Below are positions 5,754 to 43,483 of a DNA stretch of 64,000 nt, piece after piece. The DNA lies in the IMG/VR virus record IMGVR_UViG_3300005330_000014, positions 144,234 to 208,233 of that record; one strand, written 5' to 3'. The notes beneath the pieces were generated by a model, which was given only the letters and a program-made list of their open reading frames with translations, had not been told where the DNA came from and searched no databases. Made by a program: the position numbers and the translations under genes. This stretch comes from a virus (Duplodnaviria > Caudoviricetes). How positions within the stretch are numbered: position 1 is the first letter of the stretch; each line of letters opens with the position of its first letter.

Positions 5754-6569
5754 ATGAAAATAGCAGGATGGAATTTCGGATTGTTTGGTGATTTAGTTAT
5801 GAATACTACATTAGCCAAAACTTTTAAAACTCATAACCCAGATAGTAATTTAATTTTTTGTGTTGGACGCAAATATTCTGCAATTTTACCTTTATTTTAT
5901 AATCATCCTTGCATAGATGGATTTCACGTATGGGAAGGTTGTGATGATTGGCCGACCAATAATGATAGTAAATATATAGAGTCTGGGCGATTTGATAAAG
6001 TATATTCCGCGTGCCCTCAACATAAACGGCAAGATTGGTATAAATACAATCATTATATTGAAGAAGTGCATGATATGAACGATTTCCCTCCACCTGTCGA
6101 TATGCAATGTCATTTAGATAAATGGTTTCAAACAGAAGAAAGAAGTCAAAAACTAATAACAACTTCTTTAGTTTCTGGAAATGATCCGCTTGGGCGCGCA
6201 CTTGATTCTAATCAAATACTAAGCTTACACAAAGATATTGAAAAGTTAGGATATAAAGTGGTTAGGCTGGATACCAAACAATGCCCAACATTAGAAAATG
6301 ATTATCCTGCTTCCAAACTTAGTTTATTAGACGCGGTAAAGTTATTACTAACTTCTAAACTACATTTAACAGTTGACACTTCTTATTCGTGGATCGGTTC
6401 AAGTTATAGTCATCCAGTTTTATCTCTACATGGAATTAATTATCCAGATATGGATATTGAGCATGTGAAAAGTCACGTTCCCTTTAATCCAAATGCGCGA
6501 GCTATAATTTCAAACAGTGTCAAGGAAATAAAAAATCAATCTATTATTGATGTTATCAAATCTTTCTAA
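5754..6569 (+). CDS. Glycosyltransferase family 9-like (heptosyltransferase fold)
   Basis: GLFGDLVMNT N-terminus, LHLTVDTSYSWIG..YSHP C-terminus; start moved to ATG 5754. Confidence 0.7.
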   Translation: MKIAGWNFGLFGDLVMNTTLAKTFKTHNPDSNLIFCVGRKYSAILPLFYNHPCIDGFHVWEGCDDWPTNNDSKYIESGRFDKVYSACPQHKRQDWYKYNHYIEEVHDMNDFPPPVDMQCHLDKWFQTEERSQKLITTSLVSGNDPLGRALDSNQILSLHKDIEKLGYKVVRLDTKQCPTLENDYPASKLSLLDAVKLLLTSKLHLTVDTSYSWIGSSYSHPVLSLHGINYPDMDIEHVKSHVPFNPNARAIISNSVKEIKNQSIIDVIKSF

Positions 6570-6577
6570 ATTATATA
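6569..6577 (+). promoter_or_regulatory. AATTATATA motif
   Basis: Intergenic, 9 nt before ATG 6586. Confidence 0.4.
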
Positions 6578-6585
6578 GATAAAGA

Positions 6586-7083
6586 ATGAGTAACACTGAA
6601 GTTCATTTTAGTTCAAAATCTAACGAATGGGAAACCCCTAAATATGTTTTTAATTATTTAGACAATGAGTTCAATTTTACTCTGGACGCAGCAGCGACAA
6701 AAGATAATTGGTTGATTTCTGATTACTTTACTCCTGAAGACGATGCTCTTACAAAAGATTGGTCGGCATATAAATCAATTTGGTGTAATCCTCCTTATGG
6801 CAGGTTAATAAGTAAGTTTATTCAAAAAGGTTATGAAGAATCTTTGAAAGGATGTACTGTTGTTTTCCTAATCCCGGCCCGCGTGGATACTAAATGGTGG
6901 CACGAATATTGTTCAAAAGGTGAAGTTAGATTTATAAAAGGTAGATTGAGTTTTAACAACAGATCATTTCCGTCGTGGCGCGAAGATGGAAGTCATTTAA
7001 AATCCCCGGCACCCTTTCCGTGCGCCGTTGTTATTTTCGGCAACTCACCATCAACTTCCTATGTCACTATTCCAAAACCTTAA
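6586..7083 (+). CDS. Phage DNA N6-adenine methyltransferase (Dam family)
   Basis: EWETP, FTLDAAA, WCNPPYG, LIPARVDT, GRLSF, APFP. Confidence 0.9.
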   Translation: MSNTEVHFSSKSNEWETPKYVFNYLDNEFNFTLDAAATKDNWLISDYFTPEDDALTKDWSAYKSIWCNPPYGRLISKFIQKGYEESLKGCTVVFLIPARVDTKWWHEYCSKGEVRFIKGRLSFNNRSFPSWREDGSHLKSPAPFPCAVVIFGNSPSTSYVTIPKP

Positions 7084-35319: not shown

Positions 35320-35328
35320 CTTTGGGTA

Positions 35329-35337
35329 GTGTAAATT
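35329..35337 (+). promoter_or_regulatory. GTGTAAATT putative late promoter
   Basis: Upstream of RBS AAGGAGG and ATG 35360. Confidence 0.45.
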
Positions 35338-35359: not shown

Positions 35360-35791
35360 ATGAAAATAAGAGAATTAGTAGTTTGTTTGTTTTGTTGTTT
35401 GGTGATTGGTTGCGCGGGCACTAATTCCCAGCAAGGAAACAAAAAAATGTTAGTTAGATTAACAACATACAGTAGGGATGAAAAGTTACCCAAAAAACAT
35501 CCTGATAAATGGAGTCGGCATGGAATATCGTCCACAGGAATCCCTTTAAAAAATATGCAAAGTGCGGCAGTAGACCCCAAAGATATTGCTTATTTTAGTA
35601 AAATTCAATTACCATGTTTCAATCATTTTGTTTTAGCTCAAGATACGGGATCATGGGTGAAAAGTAGGCGCGCGGCTTTGCGATTAGGTAGGAATTGTCC
35701 GGTTATTGATTTATTCTTTGATAGAGAAAGGGACGCGGCAGCTTTCCGTCGGCGCAACCCCTTATTTATGGAAGCGGTGATAATAAACTAA
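35360..35791 (+). CDS. 3D-domain (double-psi beta-barrel) cell-wall enzyme-like lipoprotein
   Basis: TTYS, AAVDP, AQDTG, IDLFF (three Asp); LVIGC lipobox-like. Confidence 0.8.
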   Translation: MKIRELVVCLFCCLVIGCAGTNSQQGNKKMLVRLTTYSRDEKLPKKHPDKWSRHGISSTGIPLKNMQSAAVDPKDIAYFSKIQLPCFNHFVLAQDTGSWVKSRRAALRLGRNCPVIDLFFDRERDAAAFRRRNPLFMEAVIIN

Positions 35792-35816: not shown

Positions 35817-36113
35817 ATGCTAACTCGAATATATTGTGGTAAAAAATATAAAATCAGCGAAGAGTTCTTAACTGACCTGTATAGGAATGTTATTTTTACT
35901 CCCGAAATCCCAACAACGGGAAGTTCCCATTTTAAGAAAGATTTTTTAGGTTGTCGTTTATCCCCACCAATCCGTAATGCCTTTGGTGAAACAAGTCTTC
36001 TTTTTTTTACAAAATCGTATTTAAAAAAAGTTTTAGAGCCGATTTCTAAAAAAGATTATAAAAAATCTAAGAAACATAATCACCCATTAACTGATATGTT
36101 TTGTGTAAAATAA
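35817..36113 (+). CDS. Hypothetical protein with C-terminal HNHPLTDMF
   Basis: 98 aa; AGGAG RBS. Confidence 0.6.
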   Translation: MLTRIYCGKKYKISEEFLTDLYRNVIFTPEIPTTGSSHFKKDFLGCRLSPPIRNAFGETSLLFFTKSYLKKVLEPISKKDYKKSKKHNHPLTDMFCVK

Positions 36114-36117
36114 TCTA

Positions 36118-36447
36118 ATGGAAAAGCCAAATTTGAATCTGGAAGATATGCTGTTTTGCCTAGTTCCGTTATGTAGTCACTACAATCAGCCTTGGGAAGA
36201 CTATTTACCTGAACGTTATAAAAATTACTTATTTAAGATAGATAGAGTAATTGAACACCCTGTAGAGAAGGCAATTTTAGAATTATCGTCCATCCCTGAC
36301 CCGTCTTTAGAGGAAATAGATTTAGCAACTAATACGCGACCCAAATTGGTTATCTCGTATCAGCAACTATTCAAATATTTTGAAGCAGTTGATTTGCAAA
36401 TAATTAGACATAATCACCCCCTGACCAATATGTTTACTTTTAAATAG
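36118..36447 (+). CDS. Hypothetical protein with C-terminal HNHPLTNMF
   Basis: 109 aa. Confidence 0.6.
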   Translation: MEKPNLNLEDMLFCLVPLCSHYNQPWEDYLPERYKNYLFKIDRVIEHPVEKAILELSSIPDPSLEEIDLATNTRPKLVISYQQLFKYFEAVDLQIIRHNHPLTNMFTFK

Positions 36448-36474
36448 AAATATGGTAGGTTAGAGGTTGGATGG

Positions 36475-36483
36475 AATTATATA
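36475..36483 (+). promoter_or_regulatory. AATTATATA motif
   Basis: Intergenic, 10 nt before ATG 36493. Confidence 0.4.
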
Positions 36484-36492
36484 AGGTATGGA

Positions 36493-39400
36493 ATGGATAA
36501 GGTAACTTGCATATTTGGCAGTCATTATAGCTTCAGCGGTTCTAGCATTCTCACGGTTGACGAAGCAGAGGAAATTAATGAATCTAAACCAGTTTCGGTT
36601 TTTTCTATAGCTAAACACTACGAACTAAAAGACGTATTTTTAGCAGACAAAACATTAAGTGGCTTAATTGATTCGTATAATGCCGCCGGGAAAATCGGAA
36701 TCAATCTTCATTTTGGTTTTAAAGTCATTTGTTGCGAGGATATAAATGACAAAAGCGAAAAATCATTTGAAACTGAACATAAGATAATTGTTTGGTTAAA
36801 TGATTCGCGCGGCTACGTTAATTTTGTCAAATTGGTTTCAAAGGCACAAATTGACGGGTTTTATTATATCCCCCGCGTGGACAAGAATCTTTTGAAGGAA
36901 TTTTGGTCGGAACACCTTTCCATCTCAATCCCCTTCTATGATTCCTTTATTCATAAAAATACCTTAGAGTTCGGCAAGTGTGTTCCCGAGTTTCCCGCCG
37001 CCCCAACCCTATTTATAGAAAATAATGGGCTGCCATTCGATGACTTGCTAAAGGAACGGGTTTTAGAATATGGCAAAAGCGAAAATCTAGAAATTGTCAA
37101 TTCTAAATCAATTTACTATTATAAAAACGAAGATTATAAAGCTTATTTAGTAAATAAAGCAATTAATAAACGAACAACTTTAGAAAAACCTAACTTAGAA
37201 CATAATAGCTCAGATCAGTTTTCTTTTGAATCCGCGCAGGAAATTGGAATTGATTACGAAAATAAGTCAAAGTTTTCTCAATCATTTTCTAAATATAATT
37301 TACCGTTTTATGGTATCCGCCTCCCAAGCGTCGATATTACTTCGGAAATTAGAACCAAAATTGGCGCGAAAATTGATGATGACAATTATACTATTCTAAA
37401 AGCTTTATGTGTTACCGGCTTCAAACGAAGAATTGCTGATGGCACAATTCAAGACTCTGAAACTCAATGGTATAAAGATAGAATCAAACACGAATTAAAA
37501 ACGCTAAAAACTCTTGGGTTTGTTGATTATATCCTAATTGTTTGGGATATGGTTAACTTTTGCCATGATAACAAAATCCCAGTCGGGCGAGGTAGAGGCT
37601 CGGCAGCGGGCTCGGCAGTTTTGTATTTACTGAATATTACTGATATTCCAGTCAAAAGGCATGGACTTTGGTTTGAACGATTCTTGTCAGCGGATCGCGC
37701 GGCGGTAATTATTAAAGATGGTATTTCGTTTTTGCAAGATTCACCTGACGTAGATCAAGACGTTTCCCGCTCACAAAGATACAAAGTAGTTGACTATTTA
37801 AATAAAAAATATCCGGGGCAAACTTCTAAAATTCTCAATATATCAACCTTACAAGGGAAAGTATTAATTAAGGAAGTTGCTAAATGCGTGGATAATTGCG
37901 AGCAAACTGAACTTAATTTAATTACTGATTTGATTCCAGTAGAGTTCGGGAATGTTGCCGATATTGAAAGAACGTATAATGAAAATCCTGATTTCAAAAC
38001 TTGGTGCGACAATCATTCCGAATCTTATAAAATTGCTTTAAAATTGCGTGGACTCGCTAAAAATGTGTCCGTTCATGCTTCTGGCTATTTAATTACTCAC
38101 TGTCAAATTAATGAATTTATTCCAACACAACTGACCGCCGATAAAGAGATAGTTAGTTCTTTTGATATGTATTCCGCCGGGAATATTGCGGTTAAGATTG
38201 ATTTGCTTGGATTGAAGACTTTAGATATTTTAGATACGGCTGGCAAATTATGCGACAAACCTTTTGATAAAATAAACATTGATGATCCAAGTATCTATAA
38301 GTACTTATCAAATCCTGAAGCCCCTTTTATGGGTATATTTCAGGCGGAAGAAGGATTAGGAGAAAAAACTTTAAGAAAAATCAGTCCTGAAAAGATTGAT
38401 CATATTATTGACTCTATTGCAATTGGTCGCCCGGGCGCTATGCGATACACCCAAGACTATTGCGATTTCAAAACTAAAGTTAAATTTCCTAATATTGATC
38501 CTCGCGTCGAAGACATTTTGGGGCCGACTGGCGGACTTTTGATATATCAAGAACAACTCATGGCATTAAGCGTGAGAATGGCAAAGTTTACTCCAATCGA
38601 GTCTGGAGGAATTAGAAAAGCTGTTGGCAAAAAAATCAAAGCCAAAATGCTTTCGTATAAAGAAAGATTCATTAAACAAAGTATTGAAAACGATTATTCG
38701 GAAGAGTATTCAGAAGATATTTGGAAGACTTTTGAAAATAGCGCAGACTATTCTTTCAATCTTAGCCACAGTGCAAGTTATGGCTATTTAACAGCTATTA
38801 CTGCTTATTTCAAAGCTAACCACCCGAAAGAGTTTTTCTTAGCATTACTTAAAAATGCACAAAATGAATCTGAACCATTAACTGAAGTAAACAAAATTCA
38901 AAAAGAATTAAAATACTTTGGAATCCAACTGTTACCCCCTTGCTTATTAAAAGGCAATATTGATTTTGTTATTGAGGGAAACGACATTCGGTTTGGTTTG
39001 AATTCTATTAAAGGACTTGGTGAAGCAGTAATTGAAAAACTTAATAATTTCCGCCCGGAAAATTGTAATAAATTCCAAATGTTTCAAGCCGCGCGGCAAG
39101 CTGGATTGTCTTGCGGTGCAATGGCGGCGCTTGTTATGTCCGGCGCTTTGGATATATTTGTTAAAGAATCTCGCAGTAAATTATCATTTGAATGCTTACT
39201 TTTCTCTAAACTAAAAGACAAAGAAAAACTATTTTGTATTGATAATGCTCCACAGTATAATGATGACTTAATTACAATGTGTCAAGATATTCTGAATTGG
39301 CATGACTCCCGAGGGAAAAAAGTCGCACGCTCTACCCGTTTAAATACTCTCAGAAAAGAAACTAAAAAGTATCAAGAAATCTATAGGAATAACAAAGCCA

Positions 39401-39909
39401 ATCAAGCTTTAAGTAACTATTGGTACGAAAAAGAATTACTTGGGTTCGGCTATTCTAGCAATCTAAAAACAATATTTAGTGAGTCGGGCAGCCGCACGGA
39501 CTTAATTAACTTGGAAGAATACCAAAATCTTGACCCTAATAAAACCGGAATCGTTGTTTGTATTGTTGATGATGTTAAAACTTCAATTTCTAAAAAGGGT
39601 AATGCGGTGATGAAATTGTTTGTTAGCGATGAAACTAAATGTAATTACTTTTATTTCGCGGGCAAATCTTACCAAGAATATCTATCAGAAAACAAGACGC
39701 CACCTAAAGAAAAGGATATTATTGCAATTAAATTAATGAAATCCAAAGATGGAACTTCAGGATTTGTCCAAAAATTATCCATTCAATCAGTGAAAATCTT
39801 CACGAAAATGTCGGAAATTAAGGATGCCCCACTTGAAAACACAGAGGAAAACGAAATAATTGTGCAAAAAATCGCAGAAAACCCACAAACGGAAATGATA
39901 TATTCCTGA
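36493..39909 (+). CDS. dnaE: DNA polymerase III alpha subunit (family C)
   Basis: PHP-like N-domain, GRGSAAGS, PDVDQD, SVHASG, KIDLLGL, YSFNLSHSASY, OB fold; no intein. Confidence 0.95.
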   Translation: MDKVTCIFGSHYSFSGSSILTVDEAEEINESKPVSVFSIAKHYELKDVFLADKTLSGLIDSYNAAGKIGINLHFGFKVICCEDINDKSEKSFETEHKIIVWLNDSRGYVNFVKLVSKAQIDGFYYIPRVDKNLLKEFWSEHLSISIPFYDSFIHKNTLEFGKCVPEFPAAPTLFIENNGLPFDDLLKERVLEYGKSENLEIVNSKSIYYYKNEDYKAYLVNKAINKRTTLEKPNLEHNSSDQFSFESAQEIGIDYENKSKFSQSFSKYNLPFYGIRLPSVDITSEIRTKIGAKIDDDNYTILKALCVTGFKRRIADGTIQDSETQWYKDRIKHELKTLKTLGFVDYILIVWDMVNFCHDNKIPVGRGRGSAAGSAVLYLLNITDIPVKRHGLWFERFLSADRAAVIIKDGISFLQDSPDVDQDVSRSQRYKVVDYLNKKYPGQTSKILNISTLQGKVLIKEVAKCVDNCEQTELNLITDLIPVEFGNVADIERTYNENPDFKTWCDNHSESYKIALKLRGLAKNVSVHASGYLITHCQINEFIPTQLTADKEIVSSFDMYSAGNIAVKIDLLGLKTLDILDTAGKLCDKPFDKINIDDPSIYKYLSNPEAPFMGIFQAEEGLGEKTLRKISPEKIDHIIDSIAIGRPGAMRYTQDYCDFKTKVKFPNIDPRVEDILGPTGGLLIYQEQLMALSVRMAKFTPIESGGIRKAVGKKIKAKMLSYKERFIKQSIENDYSEEYSEDIWKTFENSADYSFNLSHSASYGYLTAITAYFKANHPKEFFLALLKNAQNESEPLTEVNKIQKELKYFGIQLLPPCLLKGNIDFVIEGNDIRFGLNSIKGLGEAVIEKLNNFRPENCNKFQMFQAARQAGLSCGAMAALVMSGALDIFVKESRSKLSFECLLFSKLKDKEKLFCIDNAPQYNDDLITMCQDILNWHDSRGKKVARSTRLNTLRKETKKYQEIYRNNKANQALSNYWYEKELLGFGYSSNLKTIFSESGSRTDLINLEEYQNLDPNKTGIVVCIVDDVKTSISKKGNAVMKLFVSDETKCNYFYFAGKSYQEYLSENKTPPKEKDIIAIKLMKSKDGTSGFVQKLSIQSVKIFTKMSEIKDAPLENTEENEIIVQKIAENPQTEMIYS

Positions 39910-39919
39910 AGAGGCTTAA

Positions 39920-40138
39920 ATGCAACGAAATCCAGACAATAATATCATTCGAGTAAGCCGCGCGGAATTAGATAAATTAGGTTATAAACCTCTTGAAATA
40001 ACTAAAGATAAAAAAGGAAATGTAATCCCCGCGCCTGCCGGTAGTTTATTAGCTTTACTTAAAGATGAAAATTTATGGGCTGAGTTAGACAAACACGCGA
40101 AAGTAACGCCCGATAAACATTTAATACTGATTAAATAA
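39920..40138 (+). CDS. Hypothetical protein
   Basis: 72 aa. Confidence 0.5.
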   Translation: MQRNPDNNIIRVSRAELDKLGYKPLEITKDKKGNVIPAPAGSLLALLKDENLWAELDKHAKVTPDKHLILIK

Positions 40139-40563
40139 TGAATAAGAAACTACTAAAACAATTTTTAAAATCAGATAAAGAGCAAAGAGTTGCATATTTA
40201 CATGGTACAAAATATTACATTGATTGGGATGAATCCAAAAAGGAATTAGCTTATTTTCATTGGAAAACAAATAAAATCTTTAGTAAAAGCGATCAACCTT
40301 CAAAATGCCTGCAATGTAAAAAATCTTTCAAAAAAGACCCTGACCCAAATAATAATTATTGGTATGATCCGTGTTTAGGAATTCTGCCCGGCGTATCTGA
40401 TGCTTGTTGCGGGCATGGCGTTGAAGACGGATATATTAGCTTCAAAAATGGTATTGTGCTTAGATTTCCTAAAGAGGTTACAATAGAACGATATAAGAAC
40501 TACAAAACTAAAGAAGATACTTCGACAATTAAAGTTACTAACTTAAATGGCATAGAATTATGA
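40138..40563 (+). CDS. Hypothetical Cys/His-containing protein
   Basis: CLQC, DPCLG..ACCGHG. Confidence 0.6.
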   Translation: MNKKLLKQFLKSDKEQRVAYLHGTKYYIDWDESKKELAYFHWKTNKIFSKSDQPSKCLQCKKSFKKDPDPNNNYWYDPCLGILPGVSDACCGHGVEDGYISFKNGIVLRFPKEVTIERYKNYKTKEDTSTIKVTNLNGIEL

Positions 40564-40736
40564 AAGTAAAACAAAAATATTGGTATAAACAATACGTCGG
40601 AGAATGTCCAGTTTGTGGTCGCAATCAAGGATATAAAATCCGAGTAAACGGTAAAAAACCTAAGAATCTCAAAAAAGTATATATCCAATTATCTCATTTA
40701 GAAACATACGATCATTGTCTCGAACAAGAGTTTTAA
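40560..40736 (+). CDS. Small zinc-ribbon-like protein (58 aa)
   Basis: ATG 40560 to TAA 40736; CPVC. Confidence 0.5.
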   Translation: MKVKQKYWYKQYVGECPVCGRNQGYKIRVNGKKPKNLKKVYIQLSHLETYDHCLEQEF

Positions 40737-40930
40737 TGGAAGAACCAATTAAATTACTAACCCGCGCAGAATGCTCAGAGATTCTTAAATCGCGCGGCTA
40801 CACGTTAGCAGATTATCCGGGCGTTTGGTTCACTCCTAACGGAGATAAATTAGCTTGGTTTCAAGCGGTTTGCCAAGAAGGATTAAAATTTGATAGAAAA
40901 GACAAACCTTGGATCAAGAAAGAAAGTTAA
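40736..40930 (+). CDS. Hypothetical protein
   Basis: Start moved to ATG 40736 (TAATG overlap). Confidence 0.5.
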   Translation: MEEPIKLLTRAECSEILKSRGYTLADYPGVWFTPNGDKLAWFQAVCQEGLKFDRKDKPWIKKES

Positions 40931-41034
40931 ATATATGGAACCAGACAGAAGAGACGATGGAACGTTAATAGTAATATTAGTCATGTTGGGTTTAATGAGT
41001 TTGCCATTTGTAATAACGTTAATATATAGATAAT

Positions 41035-41244
41035 ATGAAATACCGAATAATCAAAGATGGCGAAAATAAGTATCATATTGAACGCAGAATTTTTATGATT
41101 TGGTGGGATGTTGACGACAATCATCCTGTTCATAATAGTGAAACATTGTATTTCCAAAGGATATCATCCGCCGAGTTTTATATCAAGCAACTGGAATACG
41201 AACAAAATAGAAAATCTGAAATAGTAAAAGAATTAGAATACTAA
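41035..41244 (+). CDS. Hypothetical protein
   Basis: 69 aa. Confidence 0.55.
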   Translation: MKYRIIKDGENKYHIERRIFMIWWDVDDNHPVHNSETLYFQRISSAEFYIKQLEYEQNRKSEIVKELEY

Positions 41245-41246
41245 AT

Positions 41247-41525
41247 ATGAACTACTATAAAATCAATTATCGTGGCCGCTCTAATTATGGCTGCAATAGT
41301 CATAGTTTTTATGAATTGATTGTTGAAGGAGTGTCCGAAAAGGACGCTATATCTAAATTACCTAATATTGCTAAATTAGATATTGAATCAGGTCATTCAG
41401 TTCTCTCCATAGAGAATGTAGAGCTTGCAAATATAAATGAATATAATAATCAGCTTCGTTTAGCCAAAGAAAAAGACGAAAAAAGAGTTAAACGATTAAT
41501 TTGGAATAGTTATCTGAAATCATGA
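41247..41525 (+). CDS. Hypothetical protein
   Basis: 92 aa. Confidence 0.55.
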   Translation: MNYYKINYRGRSNYGCNSHSFYELIVEGVSEKDAISKLPNIAKLDIESGHSVLSIENVELANINEYNNQLRLAKEKDEKRVKRLIWNSYLKS

Positions 41526-42052
41526 AGGGTATTGTAGCTATTTCAGAAAATTGGGGAATCGGGCGAAACAACGTGCTTCCGTGGCCTTCTATAAAATCCG
41601 ATTTCGCTTGGTTTAAGAAATCCACCCTTAATCAAAGTATTATAGTGGGGCGGACAACCGCCAAAGACCTACCCCCGCTTCCCAACCGTTTCATTTATAC
41701 TTTAAGTTCAAAATATGCTGACCCAAATAACTTAGAAACTGATTTATGGGGCGAGCCAATTCAACGAACCTACAATACTAATACCAAAGGTGATTTTTAC
41801 GTCAATCATTATATTCATAAAATTGAACAAGCCCCGGCGGACTCTTGGTTATGTGGCGGTGCTTCAATTTACAAGCAATTCCTTCATTTATGTGATGAAT
41901 TATATGTAACTCATGTGAATGGAGTTTATGAATGCGATACCTATTTCCCTTTTAGTTTAGTTCAAATCACTCATTTATTTCCGTATGTAACAAAAATACA
42001 TGATTTGGATGGTGGCCATAAAATTGTTAGATATAGTAAAAATGAGTCATAA
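41522..42052 (+). CDS. folA: Dihydrofolate reductase
   Basis: IVA...GIG..N.LPW, D..WF, IVGRTT, LPNR, GGASIY, CDTYFP. Confidence 0.95.
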   Translation: MKGIVAISENWGIGRNNVLPWPSIKSDFAWFKKSTLNQSIIVGRTTAKDLPPLPNRFIYTLSSKYADPNNLETDLWGEPIQRTYNTNTKGDFYVNHYIHKIEQAPADSWLCGGASIYKQFLHLCDELYVTHVNGVYECDTYFPFSLVQITHLFPYVTKIHDLDGGHKIVRYSKNES

Positions 42053-42344
42053 AAAATTGCCTCAAATTAAAAATCCTGAAAATTTTATTGGTTATAAAAT
42101 CGGTAAATTAGAAGTAATAGGATTTGATAGATTAGAATGGTTTGATTCTATTGGTAGAAGAGAGAAAAAATTAAAAAATTATATAAATGGACTAGACAGG
42201 GTAGATTCTTCTAAGGGTTACATAAAAGATAATGTTGTAACATGTTGCGAAAATTGTAATAGAGCAAAATTAGATTTAACACAACAAGAATTTTTTGCAA
42301 TGATTAAAAGTATATATGAAAATCATAATTTATCTACGAAATGA
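42042..42344 (+). pseudogene. HNH endonuclease remnant with internal deletion
   Basis: GYKIGKLEV N-terminus joined directly to GLDRVDSSKGY..DNVVTCC..CN.AK. Confidence 0.6.
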
Positions 42345-42422
42345 TTAGCAATATTCTATATCTTTTAGGTTCGATTTTCTTTGCGGCGGGCACAATTATT
42401 AACATGTTAAAAAATTAAAACT

Positions 42423-42668
42423 ATGGGTGAAAATAATGACTTAACTGAAAAAGAACCCCCAACAAATACTTACACAACGACTTGGAATTACCGTCCTGAT
42501 TTAGTGGCGGGTCTGAAAGAAATGAATAAATATTATATGACATTTTCTACTGTTTCCACTGCATACCATGATGCTGGAGTTTCTCTTGAATCCGTTCATT
42601 CTAAAAAAATCAAATCTCACAATCACCCATTAACAAATATGTTTGTAATTGAATCGGCCAAATCATGA
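42423..42668 (+). CDS. Hypothetical protein with near-C-terminal HNHPLTNMF
   Basis: 81 aa; overlaps the clpP start. Confidence 0.6.
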   Translation: MGENNDLTEKEPPTNTYTTTWNYRPDLVAGLKEMNKYYMTFSTVSTAYHDAGVSLESVHSKKIKSHNHPLTNMFVIESAKS

Positions 42669-43267
42669 ATATTATAGTAAATAAAGACAAGAATATTGCC
42701 GCTGACCCTCTTTTAAATAAACCGGAATTAATTTATGTAAGGGATTTCAATGAAGATTCCTATAAAAAACTAAAAGAAGATTTTAGTAAAGCGATAAATG
42801 CTGAATTTGATGTTATTCCAGTAATTATAGATTCATATGGCGGCACTGTCGATAGTTTACTCGGAATGATATCTATTTTTAGAAATTCTCCTATTCCGGT
42901 GGCTACTATACTAGAAAGTAAAGCAATGTCTTGTGGTATTATTTTATTCTCATGTGGAACGCCCGGCTACCGTTATATGTCTGATTTAGCTAGTATAATG
43001 ATACATGAAGTTAGTAACTTTTCTCATGGTAAAATTGAAGATATGAAAGTATCTGTTGAGTATGGAACTTTACTAAATAATAAGATTTTTTCTATATTGG
43101 ACAAAAATTGCAAACAGCCGCCCGGATTCTTTCAAAAAGAAATGCATAAACGAAAAAATACTGATTGGTTTTTAGGAGCGGCGGAAGCAAAAAAACTAGG
43201 TATTGCCGACCACATTAAAATCCCAAATTTCACAGTATCAGTAAGTCAAAAATGCGTATTAAATTAA
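42665..43267 (+). CDS. clpP: ClpP-like protease
   Basis: IDSYGG, AMSCG, IMIHE, DWFL.A.EA..LGIADHI. Confidence 0.85.
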   Translation: MNIIVNKDKNIAADPLLNKPELIYVRDFNEDSYKKLKEDFSKAINAEFDVIPVIIDSYGGTVDSLLGMISIFRNSPIPVATILESKAMSCGIILFSCGTPGYRYMSDLASIMIHEVSNFSHGKIEDMKVSVEYGTLLNNKIFSILDKNCKQPPGFFQKEMHKRKNTDWFLGAAEAKKLGIADHIKIPNFTVSVSQKCVLN

Positions 43268-43276
43268 TTTTAAATT

Positions 43277-43483
43277 ATGAATAAATCTTATAGATTCTTT
43301 TATCATTTTCGTAAATCCACGCGTGGCATGACTGTGCATTTTAAAAATACCTGCCTCTCCTGCAAAAACGTAGTTTGTAAAACTGAATGTTCTACTAAAT
43401 GGAATTCCCGGCAACCTAGATTGGTTATGCAAGGATTTGCTAAAAAAGTTACTGTAGAAAATGATATAGCTTATATAGAATGA
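43277..43483 (+). CDS. Hypothetical protein
   Basis: 68 aa. Confidence 0.55.
   Translation: MNKSYRFFYHFRKSTRGMTVHFKNTCLSCKNVVCKTECSTKWNSRQPRLVMQGFAKKVTVENDIAYIE

Follow-up and report, generated by a model that had tools for sequence, protein, structure and literature searches.

HNHPLT[D/N/T]MF, a candidate portable recognition tag on small, mutually dissimilar proteins of a rhizosphere phage

Introduction

Short peptides that address different proteins to one partner are known from several systems. The ssrA tag and the XB tail of SspB are short tail peptides that bring different proteins to one Clp protease machine; they are read by its AAA+ partner (ClpX), and degrons of the ssrA type need a free C-terminus. 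The cargo-loading peptides of encapsulins are roughly 10-residue, C-terminal, Gly/Ser/Leu-rich peptides that occur on unrelated cargo and dock to one HK97-fold shell, and the cargo genes usually adjoin the shell gene. The capsid targeting sequence (CTS) of phage T4 is N-terminal and is removed by the prohead protease. The internal proteins of T-even phages are diverse small proteins that share only such a targeting sequence (PMC3012670). The partners of the bacterial β-clamp (DnaN) carry the canonical motif Q-phi-x-[L/M]-[F/L], which is QADMF in the α subunit of Escherichia coli Pol III (PMC11139829). Here we analyse HNHPLT[D/N/T]MF, a nine-residue peptide near the C-termini of seven small proteins encoded by a virus of the Caudoviricetes (Duplodnaviria), IMG/VR record IMGVR_UViG_3300005330_000014 (208,233 bp, 34.8% GC, CheckV completeness 95%). 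The window is the last 64 kb of this record (64,000 nucleotides, positions 144,234 to 208,233). The phage is known only from rhizosphere metagenomes and occurs in three.

Our preferred reading, to which we give a probability of about 0.55–0.6, takes the peptide for a portable recognition tag carried by small cargo proteins that evolve fast. It works like the known addressing peptides (the T4 CTS, encapsulin loading peptides, clamp motifs, and protease-adaptor motifs) and belongs to none of these classes. As in the T-even internal proteins, a short conserved peptide is the only thing common to diverse, fast-evolving small phage proteins (PMC3012670), but the peptide here lies 2–44 residues from the C-terminus, has an unrelated sequence, and occurs on proteins encoded away from the virion genes. 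Like an encapsulin loading peptide, it is a short C-terminal peptide on mutually dissimilar proteins, but its sequence is another one and no capsid gene is adjacent. The likeness to ssrA and SspB lies in a tail peptide on different proteins, one of them coupled to a gene for a ClpP-fold protease; however, 2–44 residues follow the peptide, which is not at an extreme C-terminus with a free carboxylate. With the β-clamp motif, short, often in a C-terminal tail, and used by many partners of one hub, it has in common an [L/M]-F end and a free third position (PMC11139829), but it lacks the Gln and the aliphatic second residue, carries four extra invariant residues (HNHP), and shows no degeneracy.

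Results

Seven exact copies in one phage genome

A first reading of the window from the letters of the DNA (the sequence-only reading) had described the peptide on three proteins, two encoded directly upstream of dnaE and one overlapping clpP. All three peptides are present at the positions given there, and the neighbours are as described: carriers A and B lie directly upstream of dnaE, and the stop codon of carrier C overlaps the start codon of a ClpP-like gene by 4 nucleotides (ATGA). The genome-wide motif check that it had called for, run as a six-frame scan of the whole 208,233-bp genome, raised the count from three to seven exact copies, three in the window and four upstream of it (genome 100185, 119128, 122973, and 133797; all on the minus strand). 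The carriers are listed below, with coordinates in the window unless marked as genome coordinates.

35817..36113, plus strand: carrier A, 98 amino acids; basic body, isoelectric point (pI) 9.8; C-terminal end KKHNHPLTDMFCVK before the stop codon; strong AAGGAG ribosome-binding site
36075..36101, plus strand: tag copy in carrier A, HNHPLTDMF, from the six-frame scan
36118..36447, plus strand: carrier B, 109 amino acids; acidic body, pI 4.8; C-terminal end IRHNHPLTNMFTFK before the stop codon, which lies 45 nucleotides before dnaE
36409..36435, plus strand: tag copy in carrier B, HNHPLTNMF, from the six-frame scan
42423..42668, plus strand: carrier C, 81 amino acids; C-terminal end KKIKSHNHPLTNMFVIESAKS / KSHNHPLTNMFVIESAKS before the stop codon
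42618..42644, plus strand: tag copy in carrier C, HNHPLTNMF, from the six-frame scan
genome 133636-134052, minus strand: carrier D, 138 amino acids; 44 more codons after the tag
genome 122926-123240, minus strand: carrier E, 104 amino acids
genome 119069-119389, minus strand: carrier G, 106 amino acids
genome 100120-100494, minus strand: carrier F, 124 amino acids

All seven carriers are small open reading frames (ORFs) of 81–138 amino acids in tightly packed, co-directional gene arrays with normal spacing. The tag is preceded by 65–103 residues and ends 3–44 residues from the C-terminus (2–44 if P0008, an orthologous carrier from the relative described below, is included). Position 7 is the sole variable position (D, N, or T). 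The residues before the tag are often basic, and those after it are mostly a small and then a hydrophobic residue.

From the composition of the proteome, 1.8e-6 copies are expected by chance in six frames, compared with the seven seen. In a position-specific scan of the 370 called ORFs, the seven copies score 40–43 bits and the next best site scores 10.5 bits, indicating that there are no decayed or degenerate copies.

Selection on the peptide

The copies are written with different codons (His, CAT/CAC; Pro, CCA/CCC/CCT; Leu, TTA/CTG/CTA/TTG; Thr, ACT/ACC/ACA). Identity at third codon positions between copies averages ~0.57, compared with ~0.49 expected from the codon usage of the genome, and the 30 nucleotides on either side of the tag are no more alike than the AT-rich background. 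The randomised synonymous sites and unrelated flanks indicate that selection acts on the peptide, not on the DNA, which bears out the sequence-only reading on this point. Judged by this pattern of codons, the peptide is held by strict purifying selection, with synonymous sites saturated, and the copies are old. A repeated DNA element or a promoter is ruled out by the same unrelated flanks and varying codons. Three rhizosphere DNA runs with near-identical phage gave no useful variants in the carriers, and no RNA data set is listed as containing the phage.

Dissimilar bodies ahead of the tag

When the carrier bodies alone were compared with one another and with the 370 phage ORFs by BLASTP and phmmer, nothing significant emerged. 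The best match within the phage proteome is between the N-terminal part of carrier E and the C-terminal ~45 residues of an untagged 158-residue ORF (35% over 46 residues, E=0.002). This ORF is at genome 116449-116925 (minus strand), and a domain may be common to a tagged and an untagged protein. In Smith-Waterman comparisons against shuffled sequences, 26 of 28 body pairs, the orthologue included, have z <=2.4, most of them near 0. The exceptions are B–C (z=4.2), with a common N-x-R-P-x-L-V...K-Y-[FY] stretch, and D–G (z=3.1), with a common LKPGxxF. The pI of the bodies ranges from 4.8 to 9.8, and their composition also differs widely. The sequence-only reading is supported in that the carriers are not detectably homologous. 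The carriers are genuine small proteins whose bodies look different, and because of the weak B–C and D–G similarity some of them may be very old paralogues.

No carrier belongs to a family in Pfam or PHROGs. Word-based searches with carriers A and B, in 5.8e9 proteins, and with the tail of F returned the queries only; this kind of search is insensitive to a 9-mer and did not collect the sister carriers. The ESM Atlas model of carrier B is poor and gave no lead.

The one good model is that of carrier E. In a single-sequence AlphaFold2 prediction, residues 1-75, with a block-wise predicted local-distance difference test score (pLDDT) of 64-84, form a small SH3/Tudor/FeoA-like barrel with a helical insert, and residues 76-104 (linker, tag, and tail) have a pLDDT below 50. 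In this model the tag is on a flexible tail behind a folded domain. A fold search with the model found weak small-barrel matches only (Z <=4.9). The model of carrier G is poor (mean pLDDT 50), with an order of helices and strands similar to that of E.

Two other likenesses were considered and rejected: that to a sortase signal (xPxTx), as neither a signal peptide at the N-terminus nor a hydrophobic anchor behind the motif is visible in the carriers, and that to the C-terminal His-Asn of inteins, as the next residue is His, not Cys, Ser, or Thr.

Retention of the tag in the only detectable relative

We searched 1.84e9 representative proteins exhaustively with a profile hidden Markov model of the seven tag regions. 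Exactly eight proteins match at E<=1e-3, the seven carriers and P0008, in a search in which a match to the tag alone would score near the reporting threshold. A degenerate DNA pattern for the exact tag has 0 matches in IMG/VR; in metagenomes of the Joint Genome Institute (JGI) and GTDB genomes it has chance or out-of-context matches only, mostly a conserved element that reads ...YHNHPLT and then a stop codon. Peptide patterns from DnaE and ClpP found no relatives in IMG/VR, and the literal string HNHPLT has no match in a literature text search. By these searches, the tag is without sequence relatives outside this phage lineage.

P0008 is a 62-residue protein with the C-terminal end KKIKTHNHPLTNMFCV before the stop codon. 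Two contigs from other JGI samples, of 13 kb and 1.5 kb, carry its gene, which in this only detectable relative lies directly upstream of the ClpP-like gene. The gene table of the 13-kb contig is syntenic with the window: an RNase_T-like exonuclease, a 3D-domain protein, three small ORFs (95, 107, and 111 amino acids), DnaE, small ORFs, ThyX, P0008, the ClpP-like protein (200 amino acids), and a 68-residue ORF. The corresponding features of the window are as follows.

35360..35791, plus strand: 3D-domain lipoprotein-like gene; weak Pfam 3D match; first in the run 3D, A, B; same position in the relative
36493..39909, plus strand: DnaE-type polymerase, 1138 amino acids, directly downstream of A and B; same order in the gene table of the relative
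42341..42418, plus strand: hydrophobic micro-ORF of 25 amino acids (MISNILYLLGSIFFAAGTIINMLKN) between an HNH-like ORF and carrier C; the copy in the relative (25/26 amino acids) is at 935-1015 of its contig
42665..43267, plus strand: ClpP-fold serine protease, 200 amino acids; Pfam CLP_protease PF00574, 2e-19; candidate tag reader
43277-43483, plus strand: 68-residue ORF with C-x2-C-x5-C-x3-C, the next one after the ClpP-like gene; matched in position and length by an ORF in the relative; no family match

At the DNA level the comparison is with the 1.5-kb contig. The first 83 residues of the ClpP-like proteins are 67% identical, and the micro-ORF is identical at 22 of 25 residues, with mostly synonymous DNA differences. 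Carrier C and P0008 can be aligned only over KKIK[S/T]HNHPLTNMF plus one residue (16 residues, 81%), and their bodies are unalignable. With the micro-ORF so well conserved, the body of the carrier is the only hypervariable part of the module. The sequence-only reading had named homologues without the motif as evidence that would count against it; the one orthologue open to inspection keeps the tag exactly. On this alignment, the tag is retained in the relative while the body has turned over. The micro-ORF probably encodes a real small membrane peptide and forms, with the carrier and the ClpP-like protease, one conserved module.

A ClpP-fold protease as the leading candidate reader

In the reading we prefer, HNHPLT[D/N/T]MF would act in trans as a short linear recognition tag in a flexible C-terminal tail. 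The cargo would be the small, mutually dissimilar, fast-evolving domains ahead of the tag, one reader protein would bind the tag, and the tag would bring all carriers to one common recognition site. We consider a shared trans-acting tag with one reader protein somewhat better than an even bet. Among the possible readers we place the ClpP-fold protease first, the capsid second, and the host clamp third.

The Ser, His, and Asp of the ClpP-like protein align with those of solved ClpPs in alignments to PDB structures, indicating a ClpP fold with its triad. In canonical ClpPs, an N-terminal axial-loop region docks the unfoldase. The Pfam and PDB alignments begin at about residue 40-50, which is profile position 43 of 182, and the N-terminal ~45 residues are specific to a subfamily, being conserved in the relative and in a homologue from the 595-kb uncultured phage LR756511.1. 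This homologue (5995-6603 of the stretch compared) is 45% identical over the full length, has the same N-terminus and a C-terminal PNF[ST]V, and lies in a non-structural neighbourhood. The proteins may form a distinct, stand-alone ClpP-like subfamily of large phages. The ClpP-like protein is the only protease of its class in the genome, and its neighbours are replication and nucleotide-metabolism genes.

The protease is the leading candidate because one carrier is translationally coupled to its gene and the module around the pair (micro-ORF, carrier, protease) is kept in the only relative. The link is circumstantial, and the candidacy tentative. The tag might then be a docking, degradation, or processing signal, with the protease receiving, removing, or trimming the tagged proteins. 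A co-fold of two ClpP-like copies with residues 45-81 of carrier C scored 0.02, with no control runs beside it, and speaks neither for nor against binding.

The capsid and the host sliding clamp as other possible destinations

The tag might instead bind scaffold, portal, or shell and so load variable small proteins into the procapsid, to be ejected into the host, in the manner of the T4 CTS or of encapsulin loading peptides; the ClpP-fold enzyme could then be the maturation protease. Diverse small proteins with only a short conserved peptide in common are the pattern of the T-even internal proteins (PMC3012670), and a fast turnover of bodies would suit cargo in an arms race. Among PHROGs, the ClpP-like protein matches head maturation proteases best and ATP-dependent proteases next, and a prohead protease of the S78 or S77 type could not be detected in the phage genome. 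In addition, A and B follow a gene preceded by TAGTGTAAAT, a motif otherwise found ahead of many virion-module genes.

35327..35336, plus strand: candidate late-promoter motif TAGTGTAAAT, 31 nucleotides upstream of the 3D-domain gene (the gene before A and B)
genome 9389, 13066, 16896, 22052, 24546, 30383, 206446, 208134: examples of the motif (A/T)AGTGTAAAT

The motif (A/T)AGTGTAAAT occurs 15-60 nucleotides upstream of start codons, mostly in the virion module, with about 25 start-proximal copies genome-wide, and is a candidate late promoter by its position. However, the protease and every carrier are encoded at a distance from the terminase, the tail genes, and the rest of the virion module, among replication, nucleotide-metabolism, and small early-type genes, and the closest homologue of the protease in databases of cultured organisms also lies in a non-structural neighbourhood. 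Carrier F is downstream of a sigma70-type promoter (TTGACA...TAAAAT) in an early-looking block. The T4 signal is N-terminal, whereas the tag is C-terminal. We therefore regard the procapsid as an unlikely destination, though not a negligible one.

Strong promoters of the sigma70 type (TTGACA, 17-18 nucleotides, TGnTAAAAT) are present outside the window, on the minus strand, at genome 65506, 86379, 96883, 102628, 49477, and 60062. Three of them end only 7-10 nucleotides before a start codon, a spacing that suggests leaderless early mRNAs. Within the window, a generic scan for sigma70 sites gave no excess over shuffled sequence. A Shine-Dalgarno-like core is present upstream of only 11% of the ORFs of at least 80 amino acids in the whole genome, and the host probably relies little on Shine-Dalgarno pairing.

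A sliding clamp was among the partners suggested by the sequence-only reading. LT[D/N/T]MF would dock in the pocket of the host β-clamp and tether or block it. The closing Met-Phe and the variable third position fit Q-phi-x-[L/M]-[F/L] (PMC11139829), two carriers adjoin dnaE, and the phage, with a DnaE but no clamp or clamp-loader domain detectable in its genome, probably depends on the clamp of its host. Compared with the bacterial consensus, the tag has the [L/M]-[F/L] end and the free third position, but all eight copies have Leu, not the conserved Gln, at position 1 and Thr, not an aliphatic residue, at position 2. Clamp motifs have nothing that corresponds to the invariant HNHP, and natural clamp motifs are degenerate within one organism, whereas the tag is invariant. 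The phage also has two separate C-termini that resemble the Gln-containing clamp motif, an indication that clamp motifs in this phage are unlike the tag.

39880-39909, plus strand: C-terminus of DnaE, ...ENPQTEMIYS before the stop codon; resembles the Gln-containing β-clamp motif
genome 79612-79764, minus strand: 50-residue ORF ending in ...NQTDLF before the stop codon; resembles the Gln-containing β-clamp motif at the extreme C-terminus

These C-termini point to a reader of the tag other than the clamp. With the substitutions at the first two positions and the undetectable phage clamp, they make the proposed clamp partner a weak one, and we consider it improbable.

Processing site, arrest peptide, or paralogy as less likely explanations

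The tag could mark the carriers as substrates of a phage enzyme, for cleavage or covalent modification, e.g. one of the amidoligase, ATP-grasp, or amidotransferase type, of which the phage has many. All-or-none conservation of nine residues is more like the specificity of a processing site than a docking motif. The gene next upstream of carrier E is gamma-glutamyl cyclotransferase-like and the one next downstream of D is class-II amidotransferase-like, but such adjacency is found for two carriers only, in a gene-dense genome. Moreover, no residue of the tag is both an obvious acceptor and invariant, as position 7 (D/N/T) varies. We give this explanation little weight.

A cis-acting nascent peptide, which would stall or modulate the ribosome to control the downstream gene, with the bodies largely as spacers, would leave a body free to drift ahead of a conserved C-terminal peptide, as seen between C and P0008. 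In three cases (A to B, C to the ClpP-like gene, and P0008 to the ClpP-like gene), 16-20 nucleotides separate the Phe codon from the next start codon, but in the other five the distance is 44 to ~280 nucleotides, and the spacing is not fixed and short. Carrier D has 44 more codons after the tag, and the body of E is modelled from its single sequence as a folded domain and so is not a spacer. An arrest peptide is unlikely.

It is likewise improbable that the carriers form one old paralogous family, with bodies diverged beyond recognition and the motif as a built-in part of a common fold, structural or ligand-binding. In favour of it are the similar body lengths ahead of the tag (65-103 residues), the weak B–C and D–G similarities, and the similar order of predicted secondary-structure elements in E and G (the model of G being poor); against it are the low z of the other 26 pairs, the wide differences in pI and composition, the location of the tag outside the confidently folded domain of E, and the varying distance to the C-terminus (2-44 residues).

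The second most recurrent peptide of the genome, IQQFTGLxDKNG together with IYEGDI, is present in four proteins that probably form an ordinary paralogue family; it resembles the signature of the YopX family.

Discussion

We favour a portable recognition tag because the peptide is under selection, the carriers are not detectably homologous, an orthologue keeps the tag, and a flexible tail carries it in carrier E. The sequence-only reading had proposed a portable docking tag that delivers cargo to one partner (sliding clamp, ClpP, or virion packaging). A tag remains the best reading; the partners that were named are candidates only.

Several observations weigh against the tag reading or its preferred reader. 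Rigidity over nine invariant residues is unusual in a docking motif and fits the recognition site of an enzyme just as well. Disorder of the tail is modelled with useful confidence for E only, the model of G being poor. Retention in the relative is seen at one position (P0008), its 95-, 107-, and 111-residue ORFs being known from the gene table alone. Six of the seven carriers do not adjoin the protease gene, and the adjacency of C may reflect general synteny. In LR756511.1, the ClpP-like homologue has no tagged neighbour, and the genome has no copy of the tag even with 2 mismatches allowed.

It is possible, though on balance doubtful, that the tag belongs to a phage protein-addressing system undescribed so far. 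In such a system, a rigid nine-residue C-terminal tag without sequence relationship to any known tag would deliver rapidly diversifying small effector domains to one dedicated, phage-encoded reader. The reader could be the ClpP-fold protease, for timed destruction, processing, or adaptor-mediated targeting of host proteins, or the procapsid, for co-injection.

Should the tag be an address label, it would group together small ORFans of linked function in a phage with ~90% of its genes unannotated, and one peptide is a direct experimental handle to fish for the reader. T-even phages deliver anti-restriction proteins by tags common to hypervariable small proteins, which makes the carriers candidate effectors of host takeover or counter-defence. 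A short, portable, highly specific pair of tag and reader would be a useful tool for targeted loading or degradation. Recurrence of an exact motif across unrelated ORFs can organise viral dark matter.

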